From contig JBBIHC010000002.1 of NCBI GenBank assembly GCA_037447235.1, positions 5,951-69,950 on the forward strand: a stretch of 64,000 nt of DNA. The letters run 5' to 3'. The notes under the pieces were generated by a model. That model was not told the DNA's origin, made no database searches, and was given only the letters and a program-made list of their open reading frames with translations. Positions 4,251 through 31,197 of this stretch are shown here, one piece after another. This DNA is from Candidatus Micrarchaeota archaeon. Lineage in GTDB: Archaea; Micrarchaeota; Micrarchaeia; Anstonellales; Bilamarchaeaceae. How positions within the stretch are numbered: position 1 is the first letter of the stretch; every line of letters begins with the position of its first letter. The translations under genes and the position numbers were made by a program.

Positions 4251-4253
4251 ATT

Positions 4254-4300
4254 TTTTATTTTTTTTACTTTTTTATTTTTTTTTGCTTTTGACGAATTCT
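4254..4300 (+). terminator. Oligo-T archaeal terminator downstream of ftsZ.
   Basis: The sequence is ttttttattttttttacttttttatttttttttgctttt, immediately after the ftsZ stop. Confidence 0.6.
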
Positions 4301-4411
4301 CTTCCAGCCGCGGCACCATTCACCTGTGTTCTACCACACTTAACCAAGTGGAAACATTTATAAACATTTCTCACAATAATATAACATAAAACACTATATA
4401 TTGGTGGAAAT

Positions 4412-9023: not shown

Positions 9024-9422
9024 ATGTTTGGAATGGTTGGGATAAGGCTGCTTGATGGGAGCGTTAGCATAAAAGAGGATAAGCCGCCGAAAGGCCTTTC
9101 TATAGACCTGAAGATAACAAAAATCTCAAAGACCGACAGGGAAGATCTCGCGAATGTCAGGTTTTCCTATCTTGTGGGCTACACGCCGAATACTGCTGTC
9201 CTGAAGCTTGAAGGCGAGGCGCTGGTGACTGATGAACCTAAGGAATTGGATAAAATGGTTTCATCCTGGAAAGAGAAGCACAGGATAGACGAGAATATGG
9301 CCGCCAACATCCTGAATGCGATTAACCCGTATGTAACGCATAACGCTTTGCTCGTTCTCAGGGCGTTCAACCTGCCTCCGCACATCGCTCCTCCCCCAAT
9401 AATGCCGTCAAAAAAGAAGTAA
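9024..9422 (+). CDS. Hypothetical protein.
   Basis: A 132-aa ORF in the same orientation as the downstream membrane protein, with tight spacing to it. Confidence 0.35.
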   Translation: MFGMVGIRLLDGSVSIKEDKPPKGLSIDLKITKISKTDREDLANVRFSYLVGYTPNTAVLKLEGEALVTDEPKELDKMVSSWKEKHRIDENMAANILNAINPYVTHNALLVLRAFNLPPHIAPPPIMPSKKK

Positions 9423-9428
9423 GTTGGT

Positions 9429-10157
9429 TTGATGGAGCTCAAGACCGTCTTTTCCGCTTACGGCGAAAAGCCATTTCTTTTCATCTGGGGCTCAGTGCTT
9501 TATGTCTTCTTTTCACTGCTTGTGCTGTTTGCCACGACAGGCATACTCCTTTTTTCCTCACTCGCGCTTTTCTTTGCGGGTTTTCCGCTTTCTTTTGAAG
9601 ACTACACGACCATCACCCTCTACGCAATCCCCCTTCTCGCTGCTGTGTTTTTTTTGATATACATGAACGGCTGCATAACGGCAGCAACAATATACGCATA
9701 CAAAAAAGCGCTTACGGGCTCGCATGTTTCCCTTGTTGAGTTCTATCATTACGGCCTGTCGCGCGGCCCGATGATCTTTTCAATAGGCATAATGCGCGAT
9801 TTCTTCATGCTCATCATAATCGGCATCGGCGTAGCGCTCTATTACTATGCCCTGCAGGACTGGGAATACGGAATCCATCTTCTCGCTTTGTATTCTCTCT
9901 CGGTTTTCTTTGTCTTCCATCTAACCGCAAAACCCGGGATAATCGCGTGCGGGCTTGGCGCAGAGCCATTTGAGGCATTCAAGGAGCTTTATTTCGTGTT
10001 TGCAGAAAAGCACATATACTATGTGAGCTTTTTCTTCATCTACAGCATCATCTGGCTACTGAATTTCATCCCGCTTATCCAGTTTGTCTCCCTTCCTGTT
10101 CTCTATCCGCTTGTTTATAGCGCGCTTATCACGATGGTTGAGGAAGAAAGAAAGTGA
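9429..10157 (+). CDS. Polytopic integral membrane protein.
   Basis: The 242-aa protein has 6-7 hydrophobic helices. It ends in TGA 4 nt before the next ATG. Confidence 0.5.
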   Translation: MMELKTVFSAYGEKPFLFIWGSVLYVFFSLLVLFATTGILLFSSLALFFAGFPLSFEDYTTITLYAIPLLAAVFFLIYMNGCITAATIYAYKKALTGSHVSLVEFYHYGLSRGPMIFSIGIMRDFFMLIIIGIGVALYYYALQDWEYGIHLLALYSLSVFFVFHLTAKPGIIACGLGAEPFEAFKELYFVFAEKHIYYVSFFFIYSIIWLLNFIPLIQFVSLPVLYPLVYSALITMVEEERK

Positions 10158-10161
10158 TGCT

Positions 10162-10470
10162 ATGGAAAGGCTGTACGAAGTCGCATTGGAGAAGAAGCAA
10201 GCCTTGACGAAAGTGCTTGAAGCAGACCCTTATGCTACTGATAGTTTTGCCAGGGTTGGCTACAGAATTCGTGACGGCGCCTCGCTCGGCGAGGACAAAT
10301 CAAAGGTTTATCTTTATATTTCTTCCTCAGCGGATTTCATAAGAAAGGCAGATGCAGCGCTGAAGGATATTGCTGTTGTGGCTGAAGGGAAAAAAGCAGA
10401 AAGTATAATCAAAAAAATAAAAGAAGAGGAAGAGGCGGCAGAGCAGGGGCTTGGCTCCCTTTTTGGTTAG
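10162..10470 (+). CDS. Small acidic protein with a ribosomal P-stalk (aP1/L12e-like) C-terminal tail.
   Basis: The 102-aa protein starts with MERLYEVALE, which resembles the archaeal P1 MEYIYAALLL. It ends with ...KKIKEEEEAAEQGLGSLFG, a match to the conserved stalk C-terminal motif (EEE...GLxxLFG). The middle region is atypical for P1. Confidence 0.4.
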   Translation: MERLYEVALEKKQALTKVLEADPYATDSFARVGYRIRDGASLGEDKSKVYLYISSSADFIRKADAALKDIAVVAEGKKAESIIKKIKEEEEAAEQGLGSLFG

Positions 10471-10576
10471 CCGGTTGTTTGGCAGTGCTTTGTGCAGGTA
10501 CCCGATTTTTTACAAAACATCACATTTATAAATATTTAATGTGTTAATATATATCAGTTAGCGGTTATAAATCACG

Positions 10577-13500
10577 GTGAGCGGGATGAAGATAAAATAT
10601 TCAGGCAGAAAGGATGCGAAAGATTTAAATAGCGTTAGTGCGACTAGTTATAAGCCGAAATCTTTCTCGGCAAAGCATCCGTTGCTTGCTAAAATACTGG
10701 CAACATGTTTAATGTTTGAAGGTGTGTGTATGCCGTTTGGAAGTGTTAGGGCGGCCCCGAGGGAGGCGGCGGGAGCGGAAAAGAAAAACGAAGTGGCAGA
10801 GCAGGCAAAAATCCTAAAAGAATTCACTAATCTTATTCCTAAAATTAAGGCGGAGCAAAAAACTGCCCGCGTGTCTGAAAAGTTTCAGGGCTACATAACT
10901 GCAGACAGCGAATACGCTAAACAAATCTTTAAACTTTTGCAAAAGTTGGGTTTTGTAATAAAAATTAACGATAATGCGAGAAGAGACGGCATATACATCG
11001 GACAAGGCACTAATATATTGTCGGTTTATCTATTTGACCAAACGGTTGAGGGTGTTGTGAATCTCGGCAAACTGGATGATCTGTACAAGAAAGTAATTGA
11101 AGTATTTAACCAGAAGCAGGCTGAAAGTTTGGCTGAGGAAGCTTTGGTAGGGCTGGTGCAGGCAGTGCCGGCAAAAACCGCTGGCAAGGAAGAGGAGCCT
11201 ATCCCGGTCGGGCTGGCTGAGTCTGAAAAAACTAAAGAAACTAAGCCACCAGAAGCCCAAGCCGAAGAGCCCGCTCATGCTGAAGTTAAACAATCTGTGA
11301 AGGTAGATGTAGAAGAGGTAATAAAGGACTTTAATGGGTTTTTAGACAATTGGTCTTTGTTTGCTATAAAGTTAAATCTTTCTCTCGCGAGCATCGCCCC
11401 TCCCCAAAAAATCAACAAAAACGATAAACAAGCCATTCAAAAAATAGCACAGACATTGTTTAAGGATTCAGAAAATTTGCTAGGCCATTTCAATAAAATG
11501 CAAAACAATGATGATAAACTACTTTTTTTGTCCAATCATATTAAGGCACTGCTTCACCTGCAAGACAAAGCCCTCCTGGAGTACATAAAAGAATCTGAGA
11601 CCACGCGCGGGGAAAAAGAAGCGGTTAAAAAAATACTAAAAAGTAAAGGTGTCAAAGTTGACGGCTTTTCCATATACAGCGTTGTAGGCGCGAGAATGCT
11701 TTTATTGCGCATAAACGAGATGGCTCTGCGACACCACGAAAACAAAGCACAGAAGTTGTTCCAAAATAAAAACAAAGTCAAAAACGACATGGGAGAAAAC
11801 TATGAAACTTTCAAAAAAATCGTTGATTTGGAGCACGAGCGTTTACTGCATATGCACGATCCTGATCTTAATAGGGCCAACAAAAGACTATTTAACAGTC
11901 TTGTTTCTAACAAACTTTCTTCCGTTGGCAGCAGTGTCGTACAAAGCGCTTTCGGCGCCGATGATGGATTTTTCAAGTTGCTGGAAGATATACCCGAAAA
12001 TCTGGACCCCAATAAAAAAGAAATCGCATTATATACACTGTTGTCAATCGCAGAGCTTAAGCTTTTATTGGACCTAAAAGAAAAAGACGTTATTAAAAAA
12101 GGAGACAAAACTGGTGCAGAGGCTAGCCTTGGGCTTGCGAAAGACCAGTTTGTAAGGCTTTTCATTAACCGAGAAAAAGAAGAAGAGAATATGAGGCTGC
12201 AAGACCAAAACGTCGACCTTTCAAAAGCCATCAATGACAACGCCGCGTTGGTAATTGCGAATGCAGGCATTGCGAAGATTCTGCCTTACTGGCACGATTT
12301 TGCCGCTTACATAAACAGGAATTATTATCAAGTTGACAAACCGGATCTTAAAAAAAGATACGATGCTGTTTTTGACTTGTTGGCGTATAATTTGAACGTA
12401 ACAAACATCCAAAAAGGATACTACCCAATGAGATACGCGGCCATCGCACAATTGCGCCCCTCGCTGACGACTTCAGCGGATAGAGAATATGTTGGAACTT
12501 TATTTACTAATGTTGTAGGCCCGGAACAAATAGAAAAAATATATAAGAAAGGTGCAGGCTATCATCAGGCATTTACTCCTGCTTTGCTGGGCATAGGCGG
12601 AGGAAGCACCAATTACATTGTCGGCGACCTAATGGTTAAAGAAATCATTAGCGACAAATTTTGGAGTACTGCTGATAACATTAGGGTGGAATCCCAAAAT
12701 AGTAGTCTTGAAAAAAGAAAGGACTATCAAAAAAATTCAGCTCTTCAAGACATATTGCAGAAAGCAGGAGTATGGTATATCGAAAAACTGCTGGCTTTTG
12801 GCGCGCCAACCGCAGTTGAGATAAAGAAGGAGGAAAAGACAGAAGAAATGCAGGCAGAAACTACGCCGCCTGCCATACTGCAACTTCCGTCCCTCCTGCC
12901 AGAGCGGTTCCCGCAGCCTTTTATGCCTTCCCGCTACACTGCCAAGGCAGGCGAAACTAATTACATATTCGGCGAAAATATGTCAGCCGCGCTGACATCT
13001 ATGTTTGGCGAGGAAAAGACAAAGGGTTTATACGATGCATTTGCAGAAGGCTTAAATGCCAAAGACCCCGAACAGGTTAAAAATGCTGCATCTGCTCTTT
13101 ACGATATTATATTAACCGGTTGGAATCCGACGAGCGATGCGGACAGCGGCACAAAAGCAGCTATTTTAAAAGCGCTTGAGAAGGCAAAAGAAAGCGGCGA
13201 TACAGCGGATTTCAAGATGGCGCTTATGACATTCAGCGACCGCCTTGGGGTCAACCTTTTGGAAAATTTCTATACTTACCGTTTTGAAGGCGATACGCTG
13301 AGAGTCAGGATCCCCATCGGGATTGAGGTGGCGCTCCGCTTGGGCTTGTCTGAATCTGAAATAAGAAGCAAAGTAGAAGCGCGGGGAGTCGCGTTCCTGA
13401 CAGGGTTGGCTGTTCAGCTTGGCTATCTTTACCGCCCGGTCAATGGCAGATTATCAGAGTACCAATTAAAGGGCTTTGATGAGCAAGGAAAATTAATAGT

Positions 13501-14188
13501 TGAACCGACAGGGGAATCCATCTCGGCAACGCTTGAAACGCACGCCATTGACATTAACACAGCTCTTGACTTGTTGGCTTTCAAGGCGCCTGAAGCTTTG
13601 GGGGGTATTGGGGTTATAAGGGTGAATGCGGCTGTTGAAATAGACAAGGCATCCCTGAAAACAGCCATCCACGGCCAGCCGCTTGCCATAAGCGACTGGG
13701 TTGCTTCATTCAAAAGCATAGGAATAAGCGCTGACTTTCCTGGAGGCGAAGGCTTAAAGATAAGATCAGTCGGCCTCGGAGGATGGGGCATAGGCAGCAT
13801 AAGCGAAGAAGGGCTGAAGTGGGACCCAACGAGCAACTGGTATGGAAATGTTGTGCTGGGGTGGACTGAAAAGTTGGATGAATATCAACCACTTGCGTTG
13901 CAGCGGCTGACATTTTATTTAAGCCCGACAGTTCTTTTCGGCGGGCAGACAGGCTTTTCGTTGACAGGAGGCATTCAGTCAGTCCATAGAATTTCAGAAA
14001 ACTGGTATGCTCTGCCGGCGCTAAACGCAACATACCTTTACGACGGCAGGAATAATTATGGCCAAGGGTCCACCGAAGTCCTGTTCAATTTTGCGCCTTG
14101 GGGGCTTGCTGCCGGCCTTGGAGCTTCTTTGGACAGCAACCTTAATTATTCAGTTATGCTTTTGTTCAGGTTTAACCTGGAGAGATAA
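10577..14188 (+). CDS. Very large ORFan protein of 1203 aa. Has an N-terminal hydrophobic anchor, a long K/E-rich helical region, and a Gly/Ser-rich beta-like C-terminal 250 aa.
   Basis: A long uninterrupted ORF preceded by an AT-rich promoter. The N-terminus has the hydrophobic stretch LLAKILATCLMFEGVCMPFGSV. The C-terminal segment has alternating hydrophobic residues (...GFSLTGGIQSV...NYSVMLLFRFNLER). It is the first gene of a three-gene operon. Confidence 0.5.
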   Translation: MSGMKIKYSGRKDAKDLNSVSATSYKPKSFSAKHPLLAKILATCLMFEGVCMPFGSVRAAPREAAGAEKKNEVAEQAKILKEFTNLIPKIKAEQKTARVSEKFQGYITADSEYAKQIFKLLQKLGFVIKINDNARRDGIYIGQGTNILSVYLFDQTVEGVVNLGKLDDLYKKVIEVFNQKQAESLAEEALVGLVQAVPAKTAGKEEEPIPVGLAESEKTKETKPPEAQAEEPAHAEVKQSVKVDVEEVIKDFNGFLDNWSLFAIKLNLSLASIAPPQKINKNDKQAIQKIAQTLFKDSENLLGHFNKMQNNDDKLLFLSNHIKALLHLQDKALLEYIKESETTRGEKEAVKKILKSKGVKVDGFSIYSVVGARMLLLRINEMALRHHENKAQKLFQNKNKVKNDMGENYETFKKIVDLEHERLLHMHDPDLNRANKRLFNSLVSNKLSSVGSSVVQSAFGADDGFFKLLEDIPENLDPNKKEIALYTLLSIAELKLLLDLKEKDVIKKGDKTGAEASLGLAKDQFVRLFINREKEEENMRLQDQNVDLSKAINDNAALVIANAGIAKILPYWHDFAAYINRNYYQVDKPDLKKRYDAVFDLLAYNLNVTNIQKGYYPMRYAAIAQLRPSLTTSADREYVGTLFTNVVGPEQIEKIYKKGAGYHQAFTPALLGIGGGSTNYIVGDLMVKEIISDKFWSTADNIRVESQNSSLEKRKDYQKNSALQDILQKAGVWYIEKLLAFGAPTAVEIKKEEKTEEMQAETTPPAILQLPSLLPERFPQPFMPSRYTAKAGETNYIFGENMSAALTSMFGEEKTKGLYDAFAEGLNAKDPEQVKNAASALYDIILTGWNPTSDADSGTKAAILKALEKAKESGDTADFKMALMTFSDRLGVNLLENFYTYRFEGDTLRVRIPIGIEVALRLGLSESEIRSKVEARGVAFLTGLAVQLGYLYRPVNGRLSEYQLKGFDEQGKLIVEPTGESISATLETHAIDINTALDLLAFKAPEALGGIGVIRVNAAVEIDKASLKTAIHGQPLAISDWVASFKSIGISADFPGGEGLKIRSVGLGGWGIGSISEEGLKWDPTSNWYGNVVLGWTEKLDEYQPLALQRLTFYLSPTVLFGGQTGFSLTGGIQSVHRISENWYALPALNATYLYDGRNNYGQGSTEVLFNFAPWGLAAGLGASLDSNLNYSVMLLFRFNLER

Positions 14189-14202: not shown

Positions 14203-15672
14203 ATGTTTGATGAGAAGGTTGAAAAGGCGCTTTGGGTTATTGATGTCGCTGCAGGAAACAAGGCAGCGGCAAATCCAAACGACTGGGCATCAGTTGTGCT
14301 TTACTCCACAAGGGTTATGCAACTGTATGACCTCGCCGGCAAACTAAGCAACTGGTCAAAATATGTCTATGACAAGAGCAATGCGATTTTGGGAGCAGAT
14401 GCGGTTTACAAACTCAAAGCCGCGAGAAAGGACGCCCTTATGAAGCTTGCTTCCCTGAACCCGAAGCAGTTAAGTGAGATAAAGCCACTACTAAGGGAAG
14501 ACATTGTCGGGCTGAGAATATTCGACGTTGAGCCTGAAGTCCGGGAGGTGTACTATAAGCTGTTAACTACCATCGCCAGGGAAACCGAGATGAGGCGCTA
14601 CAAGATTGCGCTGACATCTCCAACACCACTTTCAATCTTGTCAAGCGAGCCGGGCTATATGGTTGTTATGATGGACAAGCCGCACCTTCCTGCCGAAACC
14701 GTGGCTGAATTTGAAAGCGCGAGCGATGCCGCCGCTTTCTTCTCAGCTTTTCTCACTCTTGCTCTTTATGCCAAGCAGAAAAGAATGTTTGATGCCGAGC
14801 AGATAGCCAAGGATAAGCTTGCCTCAAAATACGCGAGGGAGTCATACAAGATTTTCAGCAGAAGCATAAGGAAAGACAAGCACATCCCAATAGCAGAGGC
14901 AATACGCTCAGGAAATGTCTGGGAGGCAGTGGCTGACCTGCAGATGGAAGAAAGCTTTTACAATGCCTTTAAGCACATGTGGAAAGCCACCCTTGTATCT
15001 TTCGGCTTCGGCGAGATGAAGCTTACATCTTTTGTGTCAGAAACTACGCTGGCAATAGATAAGTACGGGCTTGAAAAAATGGCTGAAGCGTTTGAGAAAA
15101 ACAAAAACGCGACAAAAGAGTATCTTACGGCGATATGCCTTCTGAATACTGCCATTCAGGATTATTTCCTTGACAGGAGAATTTACCTTTCAAGGGAGCT
15201 TGAGCCGGTCCTGCCTTCTGATATGGGCTGGAAACTTCCTCTAACTGTTGTTATGGAATGCACTGCTGATTGCAAGCCCATAAAGCCCCTGGACAACCTG
15301 CCTGCCTCATTGTTCGGCATAAAAAACATCAGGATAGACACTGCTGACAGCAAGTTTGTCTATTTTGGGAAAGCCCCGGAGGATTTCAAGATTGACCCGA
15401 TTAACGGGACTGTGGCAAATGTTATCATTTATTCCGTGCCTGACAGCGAGTTTTACAGGGGAAACCTGTTTTTCATCCCTGAAGCATTGCACTGCCTTGC
15501 TTCCATCGCGATAAACAGGATATTGGACGGCAGGGTTGTCGCGGCCATAAATTCCAATCCGGGCTTGAGAAAGCTGAAGTTTATTTCAGAGGATGGTAAA
15601 AACGGCATTGCAGGATACTTTACCGATTACCTTAAAACTCAGCAAAAAATCGCAAAGAGGTCGAAAAAATGA
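14203..15672 (+). CDS. ORFan protein of 489 aa, probably cytoplasmic.
   Basis: Lies 15 nt downstream of the previous gene, and its stop overlaps the next start. It has no signal peptide. Confidence 0.45.
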   Translation: MFDEKVEKALWVIDVAAGNKAAANPNDWASVVLYSTRVMQLYDLAGKLSNWSKYVYDKSNAILGADAVYKLKAARKDALMKLASLNPKQLSEIKPLLREDIVGLRIFDVEPEVREVYYKLLTTIARETEMRRYKIALTSPTPLSILSSEPGYMVVMMDKPHLPAETVAEFESASDAAAFFSAFLTLALYAKQKRMFDAEQIAKDKLASKYARESYKIFSRSIRKDKHIPIAEAIRSGNVWEAVADLQMEESFYNAFKHMWKATLVSFGFGEMKLTSFVSETTLAIDKYGLEKMAEAFEKNKNATKEYLTAICLLNTAIQDYFLDRRIYLSRELEPVLPSDMGWKLPLTVVMECTADCKPIKPLDNLPASLFGIKNIRIDTADSKFVYFGKAPEDFKIDPINGTVANVIIYSVPDSEFYRGNLFFIPEALHCLASIAINRILDGRVVAAINSNPGLRKLKFISEDGKNGIAGYFTDYLKTQQKIAKRSKK

Positions 15673-17975
15673 AAAAGCTGTTTTATCTTATCTTGTTGCT
15701 GGGCTTGTCTTTTGCCCTTGAGAGCTGGGTTGGCACTGAGTACTATGGTTTTATTGATCCAAATAACTACCGGATGATAGCCCGCCACGGCGTTTATGTC
15801 GGAAAGGCGTCCTGTGCCGTGGATGGCGTTGTTTTGAGCGGCGACCCTTGCGAGCAGGGAGAATCAACAGTATGCGCAGGCACTGTTCTCAGGTACACTC
15901 CTGCCATAAATGCGAACTGGCGAACCTCTGATGTAAGGACCGCGACGCGCTATCTGTCCCTTGATAACCTGCCTTTTGAGGATTATTCCTCTACAAGCAC
16001 CTATCAGGTAAAATGGCTTGACAATGAAACTTATTACAGGTATGATGCCGAAGGAGAATGTTTTCCCGGCCTTGGCTTGGGGAACGGCTGCGTGAAACAG
16101 GATATATGGGATTCCTTCAATGAAGGCTTGGGAGAGCTTTATCCAGAACTTGGCGGCCCATCCACATTCAACTATCCGCAGGCGGTTACATACGGCGTGC
16201 TTTATCCGAATACTAGCTTTTTTTCAAACAAAAAAGGATATCCAATGGTCTTTTGCCACGGAAGATACAGGGTCAAGTACGGCCTGGACATTTATGTGGT
16301 GCTGGAAGAAGGAGATATGGCTGATTTGGCAGGCCCTGAACTCACCGAGAGGGTTTTCACATTTGACAACCCGGGCAGGTATGCGATTACCACCACATTG
16401 TCTGATCTTGACTGTTTCGGTGCAGTGGTCGGCCATCCGCGCAACGACAACAACAACCCCCCAAACAACATAAGCAATTTCGTTCTTCATTTTTTTGGCA
16501 ATGATGTCCACGGCTCGTTTGATCCGCACAGGAGTTTTTCAGACCAACACATAATAAATGTTGTTGATGGAGATATGGCGATTGATGTTAGAAGCGACAA
16601 CATAATAGCAAGAGACGGCTATGGCCACTATCTTCTGGCAACAGTGGTGCAGAATACCGGGGATTTTGCCGTCAACATAACCAACGTGTCTGCAGGCGCC
16701 CTTCAGGGAGCCTCTGCAACGCCTTCAACATCAAACTGGTGCCGGACATATTTTGGAAACCGGTTGGAATGCTTCCTGGGCAATGGTTATAATACGGCAA
16801 TACAGCCGGGGGCAAACACCACCCTTTACACCATCTTTTCATATGCCGGGCAGGAATATGAGCTTTGCGGCCAGCCTTCGATATTTAAGCTTGAATTCGT
16901 GCCTGCCGGCCCTGCCTGCGTTCCGGCAAATGAGAGTGGTTTTGCCGATGTTGGCGGCCCTTGCGGCTCCTATCCGTCCTGCGTGATAACTCCCCAGAAC
17001 AGCACCATCGGCCCGTTTGAGGTCCACCAGTGGAACGTTTCCTGCTTCACTGAACAGGGCGCACCAACATCCTGCACAGGAAACGACTGGCGGCTTGAAG
17101 GCATAGACGGAGACATCATTACCGGGACCAGCGAATACGCTCACGCGGTTTCCTATGAGGAAACAAGAACAACAGGGCAGATAGTTTATGTCCAGGGCAA
17201 TTCAAGATGCTCTGCCGGCATCACAGTTGACCCGTCATCAGTTGTCGCTGAATGCGACTTTGACCCTGCTTCAGCCTACCTTGATGTTGGCGAGTCGCAG
17301 GATTTTGATCTCCTTTGCTCTTTGAACAGTCAGCCAAGAACTCCTGACAGCGCTGATTACAACCTGACTGGAAATCTTGCCGGCACCATCCAGCCTTATC
17401 CCAACCCGGTTGAAGGAGCCATATTCGTTTCTTCAGATATGAGTGCCGGAAACCTGATGGGCATCGGCTGGTTCACCTCGCCCTCAGTTCCGACTTTGAG
17501 GGGCGCGGTTGCGTTTGCCTACATCCAGGTTGGCTGCGAGGAAGACGAGATATTGCAATGCCATCTTGAGTTCGTCGGCATCGGGCCCGGCGGAGAATAT
17601 GTGTATGAGCAGGTTTGCGAGTGCATACCTGCTGGCCAGAACCAGACCGGCGGCGGCGATGACAGGGAAAAGAAATTCTGCGTGATAGCGCCTCCTTTCC
17701 AGCAGATATCACCGCTTCAGCCAGGCAGAGCCAGCGTATCCTGTTTCATTGAGGACGAAAATGGCGTGCCCAGGGAGGTCGAATGCGGCCTGGTCAGCTG
17801 GAGGATAACAGAAAGCCTTGCAAGGCTGTCAAACCAGTACGGCGAAAATGTCGTTTTCACTGCTGTCGTTGGCGCTACCGGCGATGGTACGCTAACCGCT
17901 GAAATGGCTGACAACAACAAGGAATGCGAAGCAGCATTCAGGGTTACACCCTACACCTGCCAGGAAATAAGCTAA
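15669..17975 (+). CDS. Secreted Cys-rich ORFan glycoprotein of 768 aa.
   Basis: The signal peptide is MKKLFYLILLLGLSFALESW. It has more than 25 Cys, and many N-x-S/T sequons (NET, NTS, NIS, NIT, NVS, NTT, NES, NST, NQT). It is translationally coupled to the upstream gene by an ATGA overlap. Confidence 0.5.
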   Translation: MKKLFYLILLLGLSFALESWVGTEYYGFIDPNNYRMIARHGVYVGKASCAVDGVVLSGDPCEQGESTVCAGTVLRYTPAINANWRTSDVRTATRYLSLDNLPFEDYSSTSTYQVKWLDNETYYRYDAEGECFPGLGLGNGCVKQDIWDSFNEGLGELYPELGGPSTFNYPQAVTYGVLYPNTSFFSNKKGYPMVFCHGRYRVKYGLDIYVVLEEGDMADLAGPELTERVFTFDNPGRYAITTTLSDLDCFGAVVGHPRNDNNNPPNNISNFVLHFFGNDVHGSFDPHRSFSDQHIINVVDGDMAIDVRSDNIIARDGYGHYLLATVVQNTGDFAVNITNVSAGALQGASATPSTSNWCRTYFGNRLECFLGNGYNTAIQPGANTTLYTIFSYAGQEYELCGQPSIFKLEFVPAGPACVPANESGFADVGGPCGSYPSCVITPQNSTIGPFEVHQWNVSCFTEQGAPTSCTGNDWRLEGIDGDIITGTSEYAHAVSYEETRTTGQIVYVQGNSRCSAGITVDPSSVVAECDFDPASAYLDVGESQDFDLLCSLNSQPRTPDSADYNLTGNLAGTIQPYPNPVEGAIFVSSDMSAGNLMGIGWFTSPSVPTLRGAVAFAYIQVGCEEDEILQCHLEFVGIGPGGEYVYEQVCECIPAGQNQTGGGDDREKKFCVIAPPFQQISPLQPGRASVSCFIEDENGVPREVECGLVSWRITESLARLSNQYGENVVFTAVVGATGDGTLTAEMADNNKECEAAFRVTPYTCQEIS

Positions 17976-19415: not shown

Positions 19416-20861
19416 GTGTTCCCGTTGCAGGTTGACAAATCAGATTTTTCAGAATGGTATAATGCCGTGATAAAAGAGGCCGGGCTGTGCGACATCCGCT
19501 ACGGCGTCAAGGGCTTTGTAGTCTTTATGCCGTGGGCAGTCATGAGCATGAACCAGATGTATCTGATGTATGAAGAAGAGTTGCAGAAAAGGGGGCACCA
19601 GCCGGCTCTTTTTCCAGCCCTTATCCCGCAGTCTTATCTCACAAAGGAAAGCGAGCACGTGCAGGGTTTTGTGCCAGAAGTTTTTTGGGTAACTGCTGCA
19701 GGGAACAACCAGCTTGAGGAAAAACTGGCGATGAGGCCGACAAGCGAGACAGCGATGTATTCAATGTATTCTCTTTGGATACACGGAAAAAAGGACCTGC
19801 CGCTGAAAATCTACCAGCGCTGTCAGGTGTGGCGCTACGAGACCAAGGCAACAAAGCCTTTCATACGCTCGCGTGAGTTTTACTGGATAGAAGCGCACAA
19901 TTGCTTTGCAACGCGCGAGGATGCAGAGGCGCAGGTACGCGAGGATATGGAAATGGCGGAAAAGGTAATTCATCAGGAATTTGGCGTTCCATTCCTTTTT
20001 TTCAAGAGGCCGCAATGGGACAAGTTCGCTGGCGCGGTTGATACATATGCGGCAGACACCATTATGCCTGACAGAAGAGTGCTTCAGCTTCCAAGCACCC
20101 ATATGCTCGGCCAGAATTTCTCAAAATCGTTCAACATAAAATATATGGATGAGAACGAGAAAGAGCATTTTGTCTGGCAGACCTGCTACGGCCCGGCAAT
20201 ATCAAGGATATATGCTGCAGTCTTTGCAACGCATGGCGATGAAAAGGGCCTTGTCCTGCCGTTTGACCTTGCCCCGCTTCAGGTGATCATTGTTCCAATA
20301 ATAAAAGCAGAAACCGCGGACGAGGTAAAAAAGAAGTGCGAGGAGATGAGAAGGGCGCTTTCTGAAAAATATCGCGTTGATGTTGATTATGGCGAGGAAA
20401 CGCCCGGAGCTAAGTTTAACTATTGGGAGCTCAAGGGCGTGCCGGTGAGAGTGGAAATAGGGAAGAAGGACATTGAAAAAGGAGTAGTGACAGCGGCGCG
20501 AAGGGACACCCGGGAAAAAATCGCGGTTAAAGAGAAGGAGCTTGTTGCAACCATTGAGAGGCTGCGCGGCGAAATCAAAAAGAACCTTATTGCAAGAGCA
20601 AACGCCTGGTTTAAGAAACAGCTTGCCTCTGCGGACGATATGGGGCATCTTGCCGGCGCGCTTGACAAGGCGGGCTTTGTAAGGGTTCCTTTCTGCACTG
20701 ACCAGAAGGAAGGGGAAAAGTGCGCGGATATTGTCAAGGAAAAATGCCACGCCAACATAAGGGGCACGCTTTACGGAAGCGATGAGACGCCAAAAGGAAA
20801 AAAATGCATAGCCTGCGGAAAGCCTGCCGCCATCTATGTTTATGCCGCAAGGCAGTATTAG
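19416..20861 (+). CDS. proS: Prolyl-tRNA synthetase, archaeal/eukaryotic type.
   Basis: The N-terminus DFSEWYNAVIKEAGLCDIRYGVKGFVVFMPWA is characteristic of class II ProRS. The C-terminus carries a zinc-binding CIACGKPA...Y. Confidence 0.85.
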   Translation: MFPLQVDKSDFSEWYNAVIKEAGLCDIRYGVKGFVVFMPWAVMSMNQMYLMYEEELQKRGHQPALFPALIPQSYLTKESEHVQGFVPEVFWVTAAGNNQLEEKLAMRPTSETAMYSMYSLWIHGKKDLPLKIYQRCQVWRYETKATKPFIRSREFYWIEAHNCFATREDAEAQVREDMEMAEKVIHQEFGVPFLFFKRPQWDKFAGAVDTYAADTIMPDRRVLQLPSTHMLGQNFSKSFNIKYMDENEKEHFVWQTCYGPAISRIYAAVFATHGDEKGLVLPFDLAPLQVIIVPIIKAETADEVKKKCEEMRRALSEKYRVDVDYGEETPGAKFNYWELKGVPVRVEIGKKDIEKGVVTAARRDTREKIAVKEKELVATIERLRGEIKKNLIARANAWFKKQLASADDMGHLAGALDKAGFVRVPFCTDQKEGEKCADIVKEKCHANIRGTLYGSDETPKGKKCIACGKPAAIYVYAARQY

Positions 20862-20881
20862 GCCGATTTGCAATCCGCCGC

Positions 20882-23620
20882 ATGAAGAAAAAAGCGAGGC
20901 TTAAAAAAGTTCTCCACGAATTCAGGAATATGGCGCTGAAGCAGATGGAGGCGAGCCTTGAGGCAAACAAAATTAGGGCTTATGCTACGATGCTCAAGGA
21001 AAACCAGAAGTTTTGGGATTTTCTCATCGTGTTCCTCGCGGCATTGCTCATGCTCTCTGCGATAAATTTCTATCCTTTGCCTGTAATCGTTCTGCTTGCG
21101 CTGGTTGCCGGAATCGCGGCATATGCCAGGCCGCCGCTGGGTGTCATCCTTTCCTTTGTTTTTGCTATACCCGCGTTTGTATACCAGTCCATCTCTTTCG
21201 GCTGGTTTTTCCTTTTTGTTGCCGCGCTCATGCTTTTTGAGGTCTTTGAGCGCTGGCTGCTGATAGCAGTCCTCCAGATAATAATATTCGCCCCCTTCAG
21301 CTTCGGCGGCCTGCCCTTTGCAGGATTCTTTTCCATTCTTGGAATGGCAGTGTCTGCATATCATTTTGGCTCGCGAAAAAGCGTTATGGTGTCCGCGCCG
21401 GCAGTTTTTCTGATACTGCTTCTTTCATCGTTGTTTCTCGTCCAGAACAGCGCGTTCTTTCCAATCAATCTAAACCTTTACCGCTCCGCATACCACCTGA
21501 GATTTGACAAGCCTGCTGTCAGCCTGGCAGAATTAGGCAGCGTTTTCTCTTCCTCTCTGCGCGATTTCCTGAGCATTCAAAACATCGGGCTGGTTTTTGA
21601 GACTGTTGGGATAATCATAGGCCAGTCATCCACGCTTCTCTTCAGGGACTCGGCGCTTATTCAGATAATCGGCTGGTCGGCGGCGCTTTTCGCAATGCCC
21701 TATCTCTCCGGCAGGCTGAAAAAAAACCAGCAGGCGCTTTCTTCCCCTGTGCTTCTTCTTCTCCTTCCTTTCTATTATTTTGCAGGCATTGTTTCCGGCA
21801 CCGGTGGCTTGAGCGTTAATTTTGCCGCAATGGTGGTGTTGGCAGCGGCAGTCCTCGCAGTTGCGGAGTGCTTTGGCCTCAGGGTAAGCCGGGAGGTTGA
21901 GATTGAGCGCGGAGAAAAGCTGAAGGCATACGACAAGTTCGGCTTCAAGGATGTCGGTCTGGCGGCTGCGGAAACCCTGGACGATGTCGGCGGCTATGAT
22001 GATGTGAAGCAGGAGCTTCGCGACGCCATAGTGGTGCCGTTGGAGAAAAAGGACATAGCGATGGCTTACGGGATGAAGCCGCCTTCGGGCATATTGCTTT
22101 TCGGCCCGCCAGGCACAGGCAAAACGATGCTCATGAGGGCGCTGGCCCGCGAGCTGAAGTATCATTTCATAGAAGTCAAGTGCGCAAACATAATGAGCGA
22201 ATGGTACGGCGAAAGCGAAAAGAATGTTGTTGAGGTTTTTGCGAAGGCGCGGACAATGGCGCCGGCGATATTGTTTTTTGACGAGATAGATGTGATAGGG
22301 AAAAAGAGGGCAAAGGGCGGGCTGGATGAGGTCACGCCCAGAATCCTGAGCACAATGCTTCAGGAGATGGATGGCGCTGTGAAAAGCAAGGCAAGCGTTA
22401 TCGTCGTCGGAACAACAAACATACCTGACCAGCTGGACCGCGCTTTGCTGAGGCCAGGCAGGTTTGACAAAATAATCTATATGCATCTCCCGGACGCAAA
22501 GGCAAGAAAGGACATACTGGAAAAGATCGCGAGAAGGCTTCCGCTTGCGCCTGATGTTGATTTTGATGTCTTGGCGAAAAAGGCAGAGCGCTTTTCCGGC
22601 GCGGACCTTAAAAATCTTGTCACTGAAGCCAAGAGGCTTGCGGCAAAGGAAGCAGAAATCGCCGGCAGGGTCGTGCCGGTTTCAATGCAGCATTTTACGG
22701 CTATGCTCAAGAGGATAAAGCCGAGCACCACATTTGACCAGCTCGAGGAATACGAGAAATTCAGGATGGACTTTGAGAGAAGCATCGCAGGGAAGCCGGA
22801 GGAGGCTGAGGAGAAGAAGGAAGTGCGCTGGAGCGATGTTGCAGGGATGGAGGATGTAAAGCAGGCGCTTATGGAGGCGATACAGCTTCCTCTCTTGCGC
22901 GAGGACCTGATGAAAGAGTTCAAGGTAAAGCCGAGCAAGGGAATACTGCTTTTTGGTCCGCCCGGCACCGGCAAGACGCTTCTTGTCAGGGCTGCGGCGA
23001 ACGAGCTTAATGTTTCATTCCAGTCCTTGAGCGGAGCTGATTTGAGCAAAGAAGGCTATTTCAAGGCAGCAGCCATAGTCAAGGAAGCATTCAACCGCGC
23101 AAGGGAAAACGCGCCATCCATACTTTTCATAGACGAGATAGAAACATTCGCGCCGGCCAGGGGGGCAGGCGCAGCGTCCGAAGTGGTCGGCCAGTTTCTT
23201 GCAGAGATGGACGGCATAAGGGAACTGAAGGGGGTTGTCGTAATTGCAGCCACGAACATCCCTGAACTTGTTGACAAGGCTCTCCTAAGGCCCGGCAGGT
23301 TTGACAAGGTTTTCTACATTCCGCCGCCTGACGAGAAGACAAGGAAAGAAATATTCAGGATTCATCTTGGCAGCTTTGCTGAAGGAGTTGACCTTGGCAG
23401 GGTGGCAAAGGCAAGCGACGGATACAGCGGCGCAGACATATCTTCTGTTTGCCAGGCAGTAAAGATGCAGGCGCTAAGGAAGAAGCTTGCCGGCGTTGAA
23501 AAGCCTAAAATAAGCACCGAAGACCTTCTCGCAGTGATTTCAGCGCAGAAGCCATCAATAACCCCTGCAATGCTCCGCTCCTACGAGCTCTTCCTTGAAA
23601 AATACGGCGAGAGGAGATAG
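20882..23620 (+). CDS. Membrane-anchored tandem AAA+ ATPase. Cdc48/VAT-like D1+D2 domains are fused to a roughly 350-aa polytopic N-terminal membrane domain.
   Basis: There are two Walker A motifs, ILLFGPPGTGKTMLMRALA and ILLFGPPGTGKTLLVRAAA, and two Walker B motifs, ILFFDEID and ILFIDEIE. The N-terminal 350 aa consist of 8 or more hydrophobic helices in place of a Cdc48 N-domain. The ATG at 20882 is the first Met after the ProRS stop. Confidence 0.75.
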   Translation: MKKKARLKKVLHEFRNMALKQMEASLEANKIRAYATMLKENQKFWDFLIVFLAALLMLSAINFYPLPVIVLLALVAGIAAYARPPLGVILSFVFAIPAFVYQSISFGWFFLFVAALMLFEVFERWLLIAVLQIIIFAPFSFGGLPFAGFFSILGMAVSAYHFGSRKSVMVSAPAVFLILLLSSLFLVQNSAFFPINLNLYRSAYHLRFDKPAVSLAELGSVFSSSLRDFLSIQNIGLVFETVGIIIGQSSTLLFRDSALIQIIGWSAALFAMPYLSGRLKKNQQALSSPVLLLLLPFYYFAGIVSGTGGLSVNFAAMVVLAAAVLAVAECFGLRVSREVEIERGEKLKAYDKFGFKDVGLAAAETLDDVGGYDDVKQELRDAIVVPLEKKDIAMAYGMKPPSGILLFGPPGTGKTMLMRALARELKYHFIEVKCANIMSEWYGESEKNVVEVFAKARTMAPAILFFDEIDVIGKKRAKGGLDEVTPRILSTMLQEMDGAVKSKASVIVVGTTNIPDQLDRALLRPGRFDKIIYMHLPDAKARKDILEKIARRLPLAPDVDFDVLAKKAERFSGADLKNLVTEAKRLAAKEAEIAGRVVPVSMQHFTAMLKRIKPSTTFDQLEEYEKFRMDFERSIAGKPEEAEEKKEVRWSDVAGMEDVKQALMEAIQLPLLREDLMKEFKVKPSKGILLFGPPGTGKTLLVRAAANELNVSFQSLSGADLSKEGYFKAAAIVKEAFNRARENAPSILFIDEIETFAPARGAGAASEVVGQFLAEMDGIRELKGVVVIAATNIPELVDKALLRPGRFDKVFYIPPPDEKTRKEIFRIHLGSFAEGVDLGRVAKASDGYSGADISSVCQAVKMQALRKKLAGVEKPKISTEDLLAVISAQKPSITPAMLRSYELFLEKYGERR

Positions 23621-27075: not shown

Positions 27076-28671
27076 ATGGAGACTTTTACTGACAGCGAGA
27101 AAGCGGTACTTTCAAAGTTCGTCAGTAATGCCGAAAGGGATGTTTTCGTGCTCAAGAACCTTCCTGAAGTCGTGAAGGGCGCGCTTTTCTCAAGATACAG
27201 CAGAAGCACGAAGAGCCTGAGAAGGCTTCTGCTTGACGAATTTTTGGGCAACAGGGACCTTAACGTGGGATGCCGCCAGGGAACGGCAGAAGAGGATTTT
27301 GTGCTCACGAAAAAGGCAGAGGAATTTTACGACCGCGTCCTGGTCGGATTCGGCGATGATTCGGTTGCCGAGCTCGGCGGCGCCCATATAGCGCTTGAAA
27401 ACATTTCCATCCTCGCAACCAAGGCGATTGAAGACAGCCGCATCGGCATTTCGCCTCTGGAAAAATCCACGCGCTATGTTTATTTTGATAAGAAGGTTAA
27501 TGGAAAGTGGTTGTACTATGAAGAACCGCTCCTTATGAAAGAGATGCCTGAAAGCTACGCCGCAGCCTGCGAAAAATGTTTTGAGACATACGCCGCGCTC
27601 ATACCAAAAGTCGCAAAATACGTCTCTGAAAGGCTGGAGAGAAAAGAGCTGAGCGAGCGGGCTTATGAGGCGGTCGTCCGGGCGAAGACCTGCGACATAT
27701 TGCGCGGCATTCTGCCTGCCGCCACGCTCACCAACGTCGGCTTGTTCGGCAACGGCAGGGCCTTTGAGTACCTGATAACAAAACTGTACGCGAGCGGGCT
27801 TGCCGAGCTTGAGGGGCTCGGAAAAGCGATGGAAGCCGAATTGAGGACAACCATCCCTTCTTTCGTGAAGCGTGCCGGCGAGAAGCATGGCAAAGAGATG
27901 CAGGAGTATATAAAAAGCGCATCGCTGGCTGCCGCTTCCCTTGCGCCGCAGGATTCTTCAGCAACACAGAAAGCAGTCCAACTTGTTGATTTCGATCCAG
28001 ACGCATACGCCAAAGTGGTTGCGGCAATTCTTTATCCGCACAGCCGCATCCAGCTTTCTGAACTTGAGGAGCGCGTCCGGAAGATGAGCAAGGAAGAGAT
28101 TAAGCGGGTGATAAGCGAGCATCTTGGGCAAAGAATGAACCGCAGGCAAAGGCCCGGGAGGGGGTTTGAGCGCGTTTATTACACATTTGAGATATGCACC
28201 AATTTCGGCGCCTACCGGGACCTTCACAGGCACCGCATACTCAGCCAGCAGAGGCAGATGCTCTCAACCAGGCTTGGCTATGATATGCCGCCGGAAGTGG
28301 TTGAAGCAGGCTATCAATCTGATTTCGCGGACGCGATGGAAACCGCGAGGATCAGCCATGAGGAAATCGCGGCCCGTTATCCAAAGCAGGCGCAATATGT
28401 TGTGCCTCTTGCTTACCGCCTGCGATGGATGGTTACGATGAATGCGCGCGAGGCTTATCACCTCTGCGAGATAAGAAGCACCCAGCACGGGCATCGCGAT
28501 TACAGGCGCGTGGCCCAGGAGATATATTTTGAAATAAAGAGAGTCCATCCGCTTATCGCTGAGAAGATGATTGTTGACCTGAACGAGTATGACTTTGAAC
28601 GGCTGGAATCCGAGAAAAAAATAGACAGGAAAATAGAGGAGATAAAGAAAAAGTACGGCGAAAAGGGCTGA
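27076..28671 (+). CDS. thyX: Flavin-dependent thymidylate synthase ThyX-like, long form.
   Basis: The ThyX signature AYRDLHRHRILSQQRQMLSTRLGY sits in the C-terminal part. A strong SD (GGAGGGAG) lies upstream. The 531-aa length is comparable to the long chlamydial ThyX proteins. Confidence 0.5.
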   Translation: METFTDSEKAVLSKFVSNAERDVFVLKNLPEVVKGALFSRYSRSTKSLRRLLLDEFLGNRDLNVGCRQGTAEEDFVLTKKAEEFYDRVLVGFGDDSVAELGGAHIALENISILATKAIEDSRIGISPLEKSTRYVYFDKKVNGKWLYYEEPLLMKEMPESYAAACEKCFETYAALIPKVAKYVSERLERKELSERAYEAVVRAKTCDILRGILPAATLTNVGLFGNGRAFEYLITKLYASGLAELEGLGKAMEAELRTTIPSFVKRAGEKHGKEMQEYIKSASLAAASLAPQDSSATQKAVQLVDFDPDAYAKVVAAILYPHSRIQLSELEERVRKMSKEEIKRVISEHLGQRMNRRQRPGRGFERVYYTFEICTNFGAYRDLHRHRILSQQRQMLSTRLGYDMPPEVVEAGYQSDFADAMETARISHEEIAARYPKQAQYVVPLAYRLRWMVTMNAREAYHLCEIRSTQHGHRDYRRVAQEIYFEIKRVHPLIAEKMIVDLNEYDFERLESEKKIDRKIEEIKKKYGEKG

Positions 28672-29656: not shown

Positions 29657-30313
29657 ATGCTTATGCATTCAGCCAATGTTGAGAAAGCGGCGGAGGCCCT
29701 CAAGAGAGGAAGTTTCCTGGTTATGTACGACGGCGACGAGCGGGAAGGCGAAGCAGATCTTCTCTTTCACGCGGCATTTGCCACCCACGACAAAATAGAA
29801 ATGATGAGAAAAGAGGCCGGGGGCCTGATGTGCGTCGCGCTTGGAAGCAAAGAGGCAGAAAGGCTGAAACTGCCGTTTTATACTGATTTGCTGCGAACGG
29901 CCGGCTTTGGCGATATTGCCTGCCGAAGGACTGCCTACGGCGATGAGCCAGCGTTTTCGCTTTCGGTGAATCACAGGCAGACATACACCGGCATAACCGA
30001 TCAGGACAGGGCATTCACCATCAGGGAGCTGTGCACCGTTCTCCAAAGCGGCGCGCCATACGAGAATTTTGTTAAGAATTTTTATTCTCCCGGCCATGTT
30101 TTCCTTCTCAGAAGCCGCACTCTTGAGAAAAGACACGGGCATACCGAGCTGGCTACAGCGCTTGCCGAAAAGGCGGGCATTACTGCCGCCGTTGTCCTGT
30201 GCGAAATGCTTGGCGAGAGAAAGGCCATGAAAAAGGAGGATGCGGCTTCCTATGCGAAAAGAAACAACCTGATTTTTATCGAAGGCAAAGAAATTTTGGG
30301 GGCGGTGCTGTGA
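29657..30313 (+). CDS. ribB: 3,4-dihydroxy-2-butanone-4-phosphate synthase.
   Basis: Conserved DGDEREGEADLLFHAA and the surrounding DHBP synthase signature. Confidence 0.75.
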   Translation: MLMHSANVEKAAEALKRGSFLVMYDGDEREGEADLLFHAAFATHDKIEMMRKEAGGLMCVALGSKEAERLKLPFYTDLLRTAGFGDIACRRTAYGDEPAFSLSVNHRQTYTGITDQDRAFTIRELCTVLQSGAPYENFVKNFYSPGHVFLLRSRTLEKRHGHTELATALAEKAGITAAVVLCEMLGERKAMKKEDAASYAKRNNLIFIEGKEILGAVL

Positions 30314-31197
30314 AAATTGCAGTTGTTGACACGATGTTTTCAAGGGTAAATATGGGGCAGATTGCCCTGGACGAGCTTAAGAAGAATTATCCTGATGTCG
30401 AGGTTATAAGGACGACTGTTCCCGGCATAAAGGACCTTCCGGTTGAATGCAAAAGGCTTCTTGACGCCGGCTGCGACATCGCGCTTGCGCTTGGGATGGT
30501 TGGCGGCGCGCCGGTTGATGCGGTTTGCGCGCACGAGGCATCGCTGGGAATACAACAGGCAAAGCTCATGACAGGCAAGCACATTATTGAGGTTTTTGTG
30601 CACGAAAACGAGGCTTGGAGCGAAGACGGGTTTTTTTCAATATGCGAAAACAGGACGAGAAAGCACGTTCATAACGCGATCTGGCTTGCTTCCTCGCCGG
30701 AGAAACTTGTTGAGAATGCGGGGAAAGGCGTTCGGCAGGGAAAGGAGGACGAGGGACCGATAATTCCGGGAAAAAGAAAAAAGATAAGGCTCGGCATCGT
30801 GGTCGCTTCTTTCAACAGCGAGATAACCGGGGAGATGCTTGAAGCGGCAAAGAAAAGCGCGGAAGAGTTTGATGCGGCAGTAGCCGCGGTGATTCCGGTC
30901 AGAGGGAGTTTTGAGATTCCACTCGCAGCAAAGAAACTGCTTATGGAAAAAGACATAGACTGCGTTGCGGTTCTGGGGGCGGTCGTGAAGGGGGAGACAG
31001 CACACGACGAAGTCATAGTGAAAACGATAGCCGCAAGGCTTAGCGCCCTTTCGCTTGAAATGAGAAAACCGATAGGATTTGGCGTGATAGGGCACGACGC
31101 CGGCTGGGAGGAGGCAGAGGAGCGCGCGGCGGAATACGCAAAGCGCGCAGTTGAGGCGGCGGTGGAGCTAACCGAGGTGCTTAAAGGCTATGGTTGA
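30310..31197 (+). CDS. ribC-ribH: Fused archaeal riboflavin synthase (RibC, N-terminal half) and 6,7-dimethyl-8-ribityllumazine synthase (RibH, C-terminal half).
   Basis: The GTG start overlaps the ribB stop as GTGA. The N-terminal half (KIAVVDTMFSRVNMG...CAHEASLG...HIIEVFVHE...AGKGVRQG) aligns with Methanocaldococcus-type RibC. The C-terminal half (RLGIVVASFNSEIT...GAVVKGETAHDEVI...GWEEAEERAAEYAKRAVEAA) aligns with RibH. There is no stop between the two halves. Confidence 0.7.
   Translation: MKIAVVDTMFSRVNMGQIALDELKKNYPDVEVIRTTVPGIKDLPVECKRLLDAGCDIALALGMVGGAPVDAVCAHEASLGIQQAKLMTGKHIIEVFVHENEAWSEDGFFSICENRTRKHVHNAIWLASSPEKLVENAGKGVRQGKEDEGPIIPGKRKKIRLGIVVASFNSEITGEMLEAAKKSAEEFDAAVAAVIPVRGSFEIPLAAKKLLMEKDIDCVAVLGAVVKGETAHDEVIVKTIAARLSALSLEMRKPIGFGVIGHDAGWEEAEERAAEYAKRAVEAAVELTEVLKGYG

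Follow-up and report, generated by a model that had tools for sequence, protein, structure and literature searches.

A gene that fuses a large polytopic membrane domain to a Cdc48-like pair of AAA ATPase modules was characterised in a stretch of 64,000 nucleotides from a Candidatus Micrarchaeota archaeon (Bilamarchaeaceae; NCBI GenBank assembly GCA_037447235.1, contig JBBIHC010000002.1, positions 5,951 to 69,950 of the forward strand), hereafter referred to as the window. The gene lies at 20882..23620 on the plus strand and encodes a protein of 912 amino acids (aa), or of 896 aa if translation begins at an alternative ATG at 20930. The combination of a polytopic membrane domain with a double AAA ring is unprecedented, and the membrane domain belongs to no described family. 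Known membrane-bound classic AAA machines such as FtsH, Yme1, Msp1 and Bcs1 are anchored by one or two helices and have only one ring, and Cdc48-type double rings reach membranes solely via separate adaptor proteins. The protein is proposed here, with evenly balanced confidence, to be a Micrarchaeota-specific, membrane-integral type-II classic AAA unfoldase that acts as a membrane-protein dislocase.

Extent and distribution of the fusion gene

The coding sequence is contained in an uninterrupted open reading frame (ORF) at 20804..23620 on the plus strand. The upstream gene, which encodes prolyl-tRNA synthetase (ProRS), stops at 20861 and the next ATG is that at 20882, from which 912 codons lead to the stop codon TAG; the gap between the ProRS stop and this ATG is only 20 nucleotides and contains no obvious ribosome-binding site. 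The identical protein deposited in the NCBI-derived collection (P0001, 912 aa) also starts at 20882. The three closest orthologues (73-83% identical) begin with 'MALKQ', corresponding to the ATG at 20930, and lack the 16 residues between the two candidate starts. Judging from these alignments, either position may be the true start, and the architecture of the protein is the same both ways.

A search with the full-length protein retrieved more than 100 clusters of 889-921 aa (1355-1403 aa in the intein-bearing versions) with 53-83% identity and 97-98% query coverage. When one genome for each GTDB species was scanned with a sequence pattern, 94 loci were confirmed. Of the 80 retained for analysis, nearly all with enough contig sequence carry the gene in one ORF, 890-945 aa long or, where an intein is present, about 1380-1440 aa, which speaks against the hidden frameshift or stop that the preliminary description had named as a possible refutation. 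The probability that the fusion is an artefact, that is, a chance ORF or adjacent membrane-protein and AAA genes joined by a sequencing or assembly error, is negligible: the gene is split into two overlapping ORFs in two loci (L039 and L058), as such an error would predict, against which stand the 78 other loci from independent metagenome-assembled genomes with one ORF wherever the sequence suffices, the near-complete coverage of the query by the full-length clusters, and a linker that itself bears invariant residues.

With the membrane domain alone as query, an exhaustive HMMER search of 1.84 billion representatives returned 40 clusters only. Nearly all of these are the N-terminal ends of proteins 800-930 aa long; the others are short fragments, one of which is labelled 'partial'. 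This result supersedes that of a word-indexed search with a 353-aa hydrophobic N-terminal query, which missed even the identical protein and the negatives of which are unreliable for membrane domains. Since the membrane domain is found almost solely at the N-terminus of such AAA proteins, the two parts constitute one evolutionary unit and work together. One member (P0129) has 1912 aa, about 1000 aa above the family norm, with the membrane domain at its N-terminus and a YGERK tail at its end; two inteins or extra domains perhaps account for the excess length.

The named sources of the family all belong to Candidatus Micrarchaeota/Micrarchaeia (including Bilamarchaeaceae, Bilamarchaeum dharawalense and Anstonellales), with a few labels unresolved, and the closest named relatives are Candidatus Bilamarchaeaceae. 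In the current NCBI taxonomy these are placed in the phylum Microcaldota of the kingdom Nanobdellati (DPANN). Three loci (L003, L030 and L055; JAQTOF01, JAQTME01 and JAQTSF01) are labelled 'Candidatus ainarchaeum sp.', a name absent from the NCBI taxonomy. It possibly means Iainarchaeum, a different DPANN phylum, and would then be either a mislabel or a sign of wider distribution; the label is held uncertain because the proteins and their neighbouring genes nest among Micrarchaeota loci.

A second refutation foreseen in the preliminary description, that the architecture is a common annotated family with known function, is not borne out either; the databases offer only generic labels for it, namely 'AAA family ATPase', 'VCP-like ATPase' and 'SpoVK/Ycf46/Vps4 family'. 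No description of a Micrarchaeota AAA ATPase or of a fusion of a polytopic membrane domain with two AAA modules was found in the literature searched. A paper in BMC Biol (2022) in which structures of both ECF S-components and VAT are cited concerns unrelated Thermococci families, and Mm0854 of M. mazei, a soluble protein, falls outside the membrane-fused family.

The two ATPase modules

Two PF00004 AAA modules (E 1.5e-80) and two AAA_lid_3 domains were detected with Pfam. The membrane-proximal module, D1 (aa 366-640; 21977..22801), is followed by the membrane-distal module, D2 (aa 641-912; 22802..23617). Both had been described as carrying intact Walker A, Walker B and second-region-of-homology (SRH) segments, which was confirmed by a coordinate check and the family alignment. 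Walker A reads GPPGTGKT in D1 (aa 408-415; 22103..22126) as well as in D2 (aa 692-699; 22955..22978), Walker B reads ILFFDE in D1 (aa 463-468; 22268..22285) and ILFIDE in D2 (aa 747-752; 23120..23137), and sensor-1 with the SRH has the form TTN...LLRPGRFD in D1 (22406..22471; Arg fingers R524 and R527) and ATN...LLRPGRFD in D2 (23243..23311; Arg fingers R803 and R806). The Walker motifs and N513, R524, R527, N792, R803 and R806 are invariant in an alignment of 40 family sequences, and column conservation over the AAA modules is 65% among 108 orthologues.

The best solved relatives of each module are p97, the T. acidophilum VAT and Cdc48 (E ~1e-113), and the top NCBIfam model for each is CDC48 (TIGR01243), above PAN, FtsH and CdvC. 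The whole protein scores 511.9 bits against TIGR01243, below the cut-off of 802.65, and neither CDC48_N nor CDC48_2 N-domains were reported by the Pfam and NCBIfam scans. By sequence, the ATPase part is thus placed within the Cdc48/p97/VAT clade, yet it is not a strict member of the Cdc48 family. It shares with Cdc48, p97 and VAT the tandem of classic AAA modules, the intact ATPase motifs of both rings and a D2-type C-terminal helix. It differs from them in carrying a polytopic membrane domain of about 330 aa instead of the double-psi-barrel/beta-clam N-domain, in the sub-threshold TIGR01243 score and in the presence of the D2-type 'KPS..YE.F' tail in D1 too.

Whether the protein is a tandem of two D2 modules was also considered, and the idea was upheld in part. 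Either module alone aligns to TIGR01243 positions ~450-731, which is the D2 half of the model; with HMMER, D1 matches p97 D2 at 218 bits, including the post-lid helix '...YEMF...', and D2 matches p97 D1 at 167 bits. Both modules end in 'KPS.T...L..YE.F', with the C-terminal helix of D1, of the Cdc48-D2 type, at 22718..22786 (KPSTTFDQLEEYEKF...). While the tails and the profile placement favour this idea, the core identities do not discriminate, those of the modules to p97 D1 and D2 being all 40-44% and indistinguishable; D1 and D2 are 42% identical to each other.

The two pore loops differ. Pore loop 1 of D1, SEWYGESE (22196..22219; W441-Y442-G443), has the canonical aromatic-hydrophobic-Gly pattern and appears as QWYGESEK in 68 of the 108 orthologues. 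The equivalent in D2, LSKEGYFKA (23042..23068; family consensus MKKGYTQAV), is degenerate and lacks this pattern. In the AlphaFold full-length model, the D1 segment is a six-residue loop between helices, and its D2 counterpart is reduced to two non-helical residues without protrusion. The asymmetry is the reverse of that in p97, where D1 is the degenerate ring.

Approximately 10% of the orthologues carry an intein of ~480 aa (Intein_splicing with a LAGLIDADG endonuclease) in pore loop 1 of D1, inserted as ...QWYGE | SLPY...FAHN | SEKN..., which is equivalent to window position ~22211-22213, between E444 and S445. Inteins typically persist at highly conserved, functionally important sites, and their location here is consistent with such a site. 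The bearers are P0005, P0034, P0054, P0062, P0065, P0077, P0078, P0098, P0102, P0108, P0110 and P0111 among the proteins, and L002, L006, L007, L009, L031, L043 and L072 among the loci; a mini-intein may be present in L015 (1072 aa) and P0122 (1080 aa), and the window copy is free of inteins.

The chain stops 24 residues past the D2 lid. Its C-terminal tail, QKPSITPAMLRSYELFLEKYGERR (23546..23617), carries a signature, [LM]-E-x-Y-G-E-R-[RK], that is present in 93 of the 108 orthologues and reads ...LEKYGERR in the window copy.

The membrane domain

The replacement of the usual Cdc48 N-domain by a membrane region of 8 or more helices, as initially described, is borne out. The N-terminal ~330 aa contain 8-9 hydrophobic segments by Kyte-Doolittle analysis, and an AlphaFold2 model computed from a 32-sequence alignment (predicted local distance difference test, pLDDT, 91.1; predicted template-modelling score, pTM, 0.84) places 10 membrane-length helices within aa 42-330 (21005..21871), at 42-60, 66-82, 84-102, 104-142, 147-162, 164-185, 237-255, 258-278, 283-305 and 312-330. 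The same model predicts a basic amphipathic N-terminal helix (aa 2-40; 20885..21001), a less hydrophobic region with short helices at aa 186-236, and a juxtamembrane helix at aa 338-352. The less hydrophobic region, the helices of which are short or amphipathic, extends to aa 257 (21437..21652) when taken to its end in the invariant D256-S257. The juxtamembrane linker (aa 331-365; 21872..21976) consists of the charged helix 338-352, the invariant K352-F353-G354-x-x-D357 and a flexible stretch, with pLDDT falling to about 50-60 at aa 350-365.

Lys and Arg cluster in the N-terminal helix (family mean of 3.7 Lys/Arg versus 1.3 Asp/Glu), the 163-167 turn, the 276-284 loop and residues 331-345. By the positive-inside rule these segments would lie in the cytoplasm, where the AAA part has to be. 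Two topologies may be envisaged on the basis of the model. If region 186-257 is outside and helix 104-142 crosses the membrane twice, the positive-inside rule is satisfied; if each helix crosses once, the G-S-[KR]-K-S turn would face outward and residues 186-236 would be cytoplasmic.

Column conservation of the membrane domain among the 108 orthologues is 44%, with ~20 invariant positions, many of them polar. Invariant or nearly invariant towards the N-terminus are P65, Q102-S103, E120, E123, W125, E/Q132 and P138-F139-x-F141, of which all from E120 onwards belong to the 39-residue helix at aa 104-142 (21191..21307), with its conserved acidic positions E120, E123 and E/Q132. In the middle of the domain they comprise the turn G163-S164-[KR]-K-S167 between two membrane helices (21368..21382), S182-S183, N189, P194 and Y200, and in the C-terminal part D256-S257, Q261, W265, Q284, E329, E338 and the K352-D357 motif of the linker.

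No meaningful match to the membrane domain was obtained with Pfam at E <= 10, and none with per-member Pfam searches on 32 orthologues or a profile search against PDB sequences. Foldseek found no counterpart in the PDB (best E 0.58, TM-score <= 0.17) and hhalign no internal repeat (probability below 5%). The model can be read as containing a six-helix sub-bundle that resembles the S-components of energy-coupling factor (ECF) transporters, within a larger and otherwise undescribed membrane domain. The likeness covers only ~140 of ~290 membrane residues, MreD and Lnt score similarly, and it may be that of a generic six-helix bundle.

Comparison with known systems

Like FtsH, the protein appears to be a membrane-anchored classic AAA machine with its entry face, by inference, toward the membrane and a proposed role in the extraction or turnover of membrane proteins, and the linker from the last transmembrane helix to the AAA module is of similar length in both. 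FtsH combines a single AAA ring with two transmembrane helices that flank a periplasmic domain and, in the same chain, an M41 zinc protease (HEXXH), whereas the present protein has ~10 transmembrane helices and a pair of AAA rings and is devoid of a protease domain. Against the FtsH_fam model it scores 397.5 bits, below the cut-off of 600, and only the AAA part of the model aligns. Msp1/ATAD1 and Bcs1 likewise place a membrane anchor N-terminal to a classic AAA motor that dislodges or translocates membrane proteins with no attached protease, but have one transmembrane helix and one ring instead of two rings and an extensive, conserved polytopic domain.

Archaeal LonB combines an AAA+ module bearing a transmembrane insertion with a C-terminal Lon Ser-Lys protease domain. 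No Lon protease domain was among the reported Pfam and NCBIfam matches, and the architecture is unlike that of LonB. An analogy, though only that, may be drawn with endoplasmic-reticulum-associated degradation (ERAD), in which polytopic components (Hrd1/Derlin) that thin or open the bilayer are joined with a Cdc48-type puller. In ERAD these are separate proteins with recruitment by ubiquitin and adaptors, while here both tasks would fall to one polypeptide, in which no homology to Hrd1 or Derlin could be found.

An archaeal group of 'membrane-bound AAA' (MBA) proteins, the sole one of its kind encountered in the literature searched, has been described in Sulfolobus (Serek-Heuberger et al. 2009, cited in PMC3493965). 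Compared by description only, the two families are alike in being archaeal, lineage-restricted, membrane-bound classic AAA proteins without assigned function, and differ in that MBA forms a separate Sulfolobus cluster and the present family is confined to Micrarchaeota. The Sulfolobus proteins have just one AAA module, and their membrane anchor is small. Overall, the geometry of the fusion protein is closest to that of FtsH and Msp1 and its motor to that of Cdc48 and VAT, and it has the defining features of none of them.

Proposed function

Classic AAA proteins form hexamers, and Cdc48-type motors thread their substrates from D1 to D2. In the dislocase mechanism proposed here, a hexameric double ring would hang beneath the membrane from six membrane domains. 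In the AAA fold the N-terminus exits on the face where substrates enter, so that in D1 this face would be turned toward the membrane, as in FtsH and Msp1. The Trp-Tyr-Gly pore loops of D1 would seize a membrane or membrane-associated protein by a tail or loop on its cytoplasmic side, and ATP hydrolysis would thread it through D1 and then D2, out of the bilayer and into the cytoplasm. With its intact ATPase motifs and collapsed pore loop, D2 would probably not grip the substrate but stabilise the assembly or add auxiliary power. The membrane domain might, for instance, recognise clients or offer them a hydrophilic lateral exit path from the lipid; it is probably more than an anchor because it has invariant polar intramembrane residues (Q102, S164, D256, Q261, W265 and the E120/E123/E132 ladder). 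The released substrate would be passed to cytosolic proteases, or indirectly to the 20S proteasome, the outcome being quality control or turnover of membrane proteins.

An extraction or quality-control role analogous to that of FtsH or Msp1 had already been suggested in the preliminary description. It fits the geometry, the canonical pore loop of D1 being on the membrane-facing side, as well as the HbYX-like tails of a minority of the members, and is maintained here as an inference. To our knowledge, archaea lack FtsH.

Several points weigh against the dislocase proposal. That the protein forms hexamers, how its rings are oriented and in which direction they thread are deduced by analogy with known machines. 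The continuous 39-residue helix 104-142 of the model conflicts with the simplest positive-inside topology, and the partial likeness to S-components could mean ligand binding. LonB, if encoded by the organism too, would already serve membrane-protein quality control. No neighbouring gene is conserved family-wide across the 80 loci; the housekeeping genes found there vary by lineage and point to no substrate. Finally, an HbYX motif, for which the C-terminus was to be checked and which many though not all archaeal Cdc48 proteins possess, is absent from the window copy, which ends in ...EKYGERR. AAA proteins of M. mazei without HbYX neither bound nor stimulated the 20S proteasome (Forouzan 2012, PMC3493965), and direct docking on the 20S is therefore unlikely for the window copy.

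The C-terminus differs in a minority of the family. In eight of the 108 orthologues and in P0121, the YGER core is extended by 15-25 acidic, Pro-rich residues that end in G-M-Y-R (P0052, P0074, P0075, P0094, P0095 and P0121) or H-Y-R (P0084, P0112 and P0114). From these sequences it is plausible that the minority members with M-Y-R tails, which fit HbYX, or H-Y-R tails dock directly on the 20S proteasome. A homologue of the PAC2/Pba family of proteasome-assembly chaperones is encoded in the window at 36555-37289 on the minus strand (E 1e-34), so that the organism very probably possesses a proteasome.

A bolder version of the dislocase proposal, offered tentatively and regarded as rather doubtful, would make the protein a one-polypeptide 'retrotranslocon', in which a polytopic lateral gate or conduit, taking the part of Hrd1/Derlin, is fused to a Cdc48-type motor and some members dock on the 20S via a flexible HbYX tail. 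Such a pathway for the dislocation and degradation of membrane proteins would be a Micrarchaeota invention built on a novel fold in the membrane, and canonical Cdc48, LonB or both may have been replaced by it.

Alternative functions

The protein may instead be a membrane-tethered general Cdc48-like segregase acting on soluble or peripheral complexes, with the membrane domain as an anchor or localiser, for example at a host-contact site of these episymbiotic archaea; it might then be the substitute of the lineage for canonical Cdc48. This is considered unlikely. The affinity of the ATPase part to Cdc48, VAT and p97 agrees with it, and the flexible linkers would give the rings reach. CDC48 was the sole AAA group present in all archaea surveyed (PMC3493965), and a derived version of it in a reduced genome is conceivable. 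A second AAA gene is absent from the 64-kb window, which is in keeping with this reading. However, ~300 residues with 10 helices and ~20 invariant positions exceed the needs of an anchor, for which Msp1, FtsH and Bcs1 use one or two helices, and the membrane domain is never detached from the AAA part save in short, probably truncated fragments.

A role as a surface-assembly or secretion motor, with the rings feeding or remodelling S-layer, pilus or other envelope proteins outward, through or at the membrane domain, is improbable. It would account for an S-layer-like gene (PF05124, E 1e-8; about 860-940 aa, with a signal peptide) that follows the fusion gene on the same strand at 12-13 deeper-branching loci (L057, at 9339-11924, L063-L068, L070-L072, L077 and L078), where it is followed by an unknown conserved gene (cluster 10). 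The window also encodes SecD/SecF, a prepilin peptidase and glycosyltransferases, although none is adjacent to the fusion gene. The S-layer-like gene, however, begins 250-650 nucleotides (once 1.6 kb) beyond the AAA gene and probably has its own promoter. It is found neither at the window locus nor at most loci, and the linkage is confined to one sub-clade with flanks that are syntenic anyway, so that it looks like sub-clade synteny and is a weak lead. Moreover, in classic AAA motors the substrate passes from the N-face to the C-face, which here is away from the membrane, and the archaeal ATPases of secretion and pili come from other families.

Still less probable is a ligand-binding or transport module akin to the ECF S-components, with the rings energising or regulating the uptake or sensing of small molecules by auxotrophic symbionts. 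Under one candidate topology, the conserved polar residues gather at one face of the membrane in a pocket-like arrangement, as this explanation would lead one to expect. Identity to the S-components (such as RibU, ThiT, BioY and FolT) is, however, only 6-15%, with ~4 extra helices in the present domain and no family signal, and the profile, per-member Pfam/PDB and Foldseek searches, the partial coverage and the similar scores of MreD and Lnt lend it no support. S-components dock on an ABC module, whereas this domain is fused to an AAA motor, and neither EcfT nor EcfA turned up among those recurrent neighbours for which an annotation was obtained. The protein-gripping pore loop of D1 is conserved, and we know of no small-molecule transporter driven by an AAA motor. 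A small residual probability falls to functions other than those considered here.

Genomic context

In the window, the fusion gene is preceded by ProRS (plus strand) and a RecJ-like DHH gene (minus strand) and followed by a DNA ligase and an Na/Pi transporter (both minus strand). Among the 80 loci, an aromatic amino-acid operon is located upstream in about 14-21 and a methyltransferase with an H+-pyrophosphatase downstream in ~20. An operon logic for these associations was rejected, the aromatic operon, ProRS, DNA ligase, methyltransferase and H+-pyrophosphatase representing lineage-specific synteny. At one locus (L005), a gene two positions upstream of the fusion gene (3826-5373, minus strand) encodes a protein of 515 aa with two degenerate P-loops (GIAGTGKS and GPSGCGKT) and appears to represent a separate, divergent double-AAA family.

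Four plus-strand ORFs of the window, at 5253-7295, 10577-14188, 14203-15672 and 15669-17975 (680, 1203, 489 and 768 aa, respectively), have no Pfam match at E <= 1e-5. Three of the four lie next to one another in the same orientation, directly ahead of the RecJ/ProRS/AAA region, and all four could encode lineage-specific surface or host-interaction proteins. The ORF at 121-2379 (plus strand; 752 aa) contains right-handed beta-helix/NosD-like repeats, and its product may be a secreted or surface carbohydrate-binding protein. The ThyX ORF (27076-28671, plus strand; 531 aa) has two Thy1 stretches, the best at aa 303-492, and the lumazine synthase ORF (30199-31197, plus strand; 332 aa) also has two matched stretches; both may be duplicated or fused, or have starts called too far upstream.

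Implications

The permanent fusion of a Cdc48-like double ring to a large membrane domain would represent another way of removing proteins from bilayers, and it occurs across a phylum of genome-reduced, host-dependent archaea with an almost unexplored envelope biology. If the proposed dislocase activity is wrong, the polar intramembrane site and the S-component-like sub-fold would point to an equally undescribed membrane function coupled to an AAA motor. If it is true, the membrane domain would constitute a new fold family, and the protein would provide a minimal, reconstitutable system for AAA-driven extraction of membrane proteins and a handle on proteostasis in DPANN archaea.

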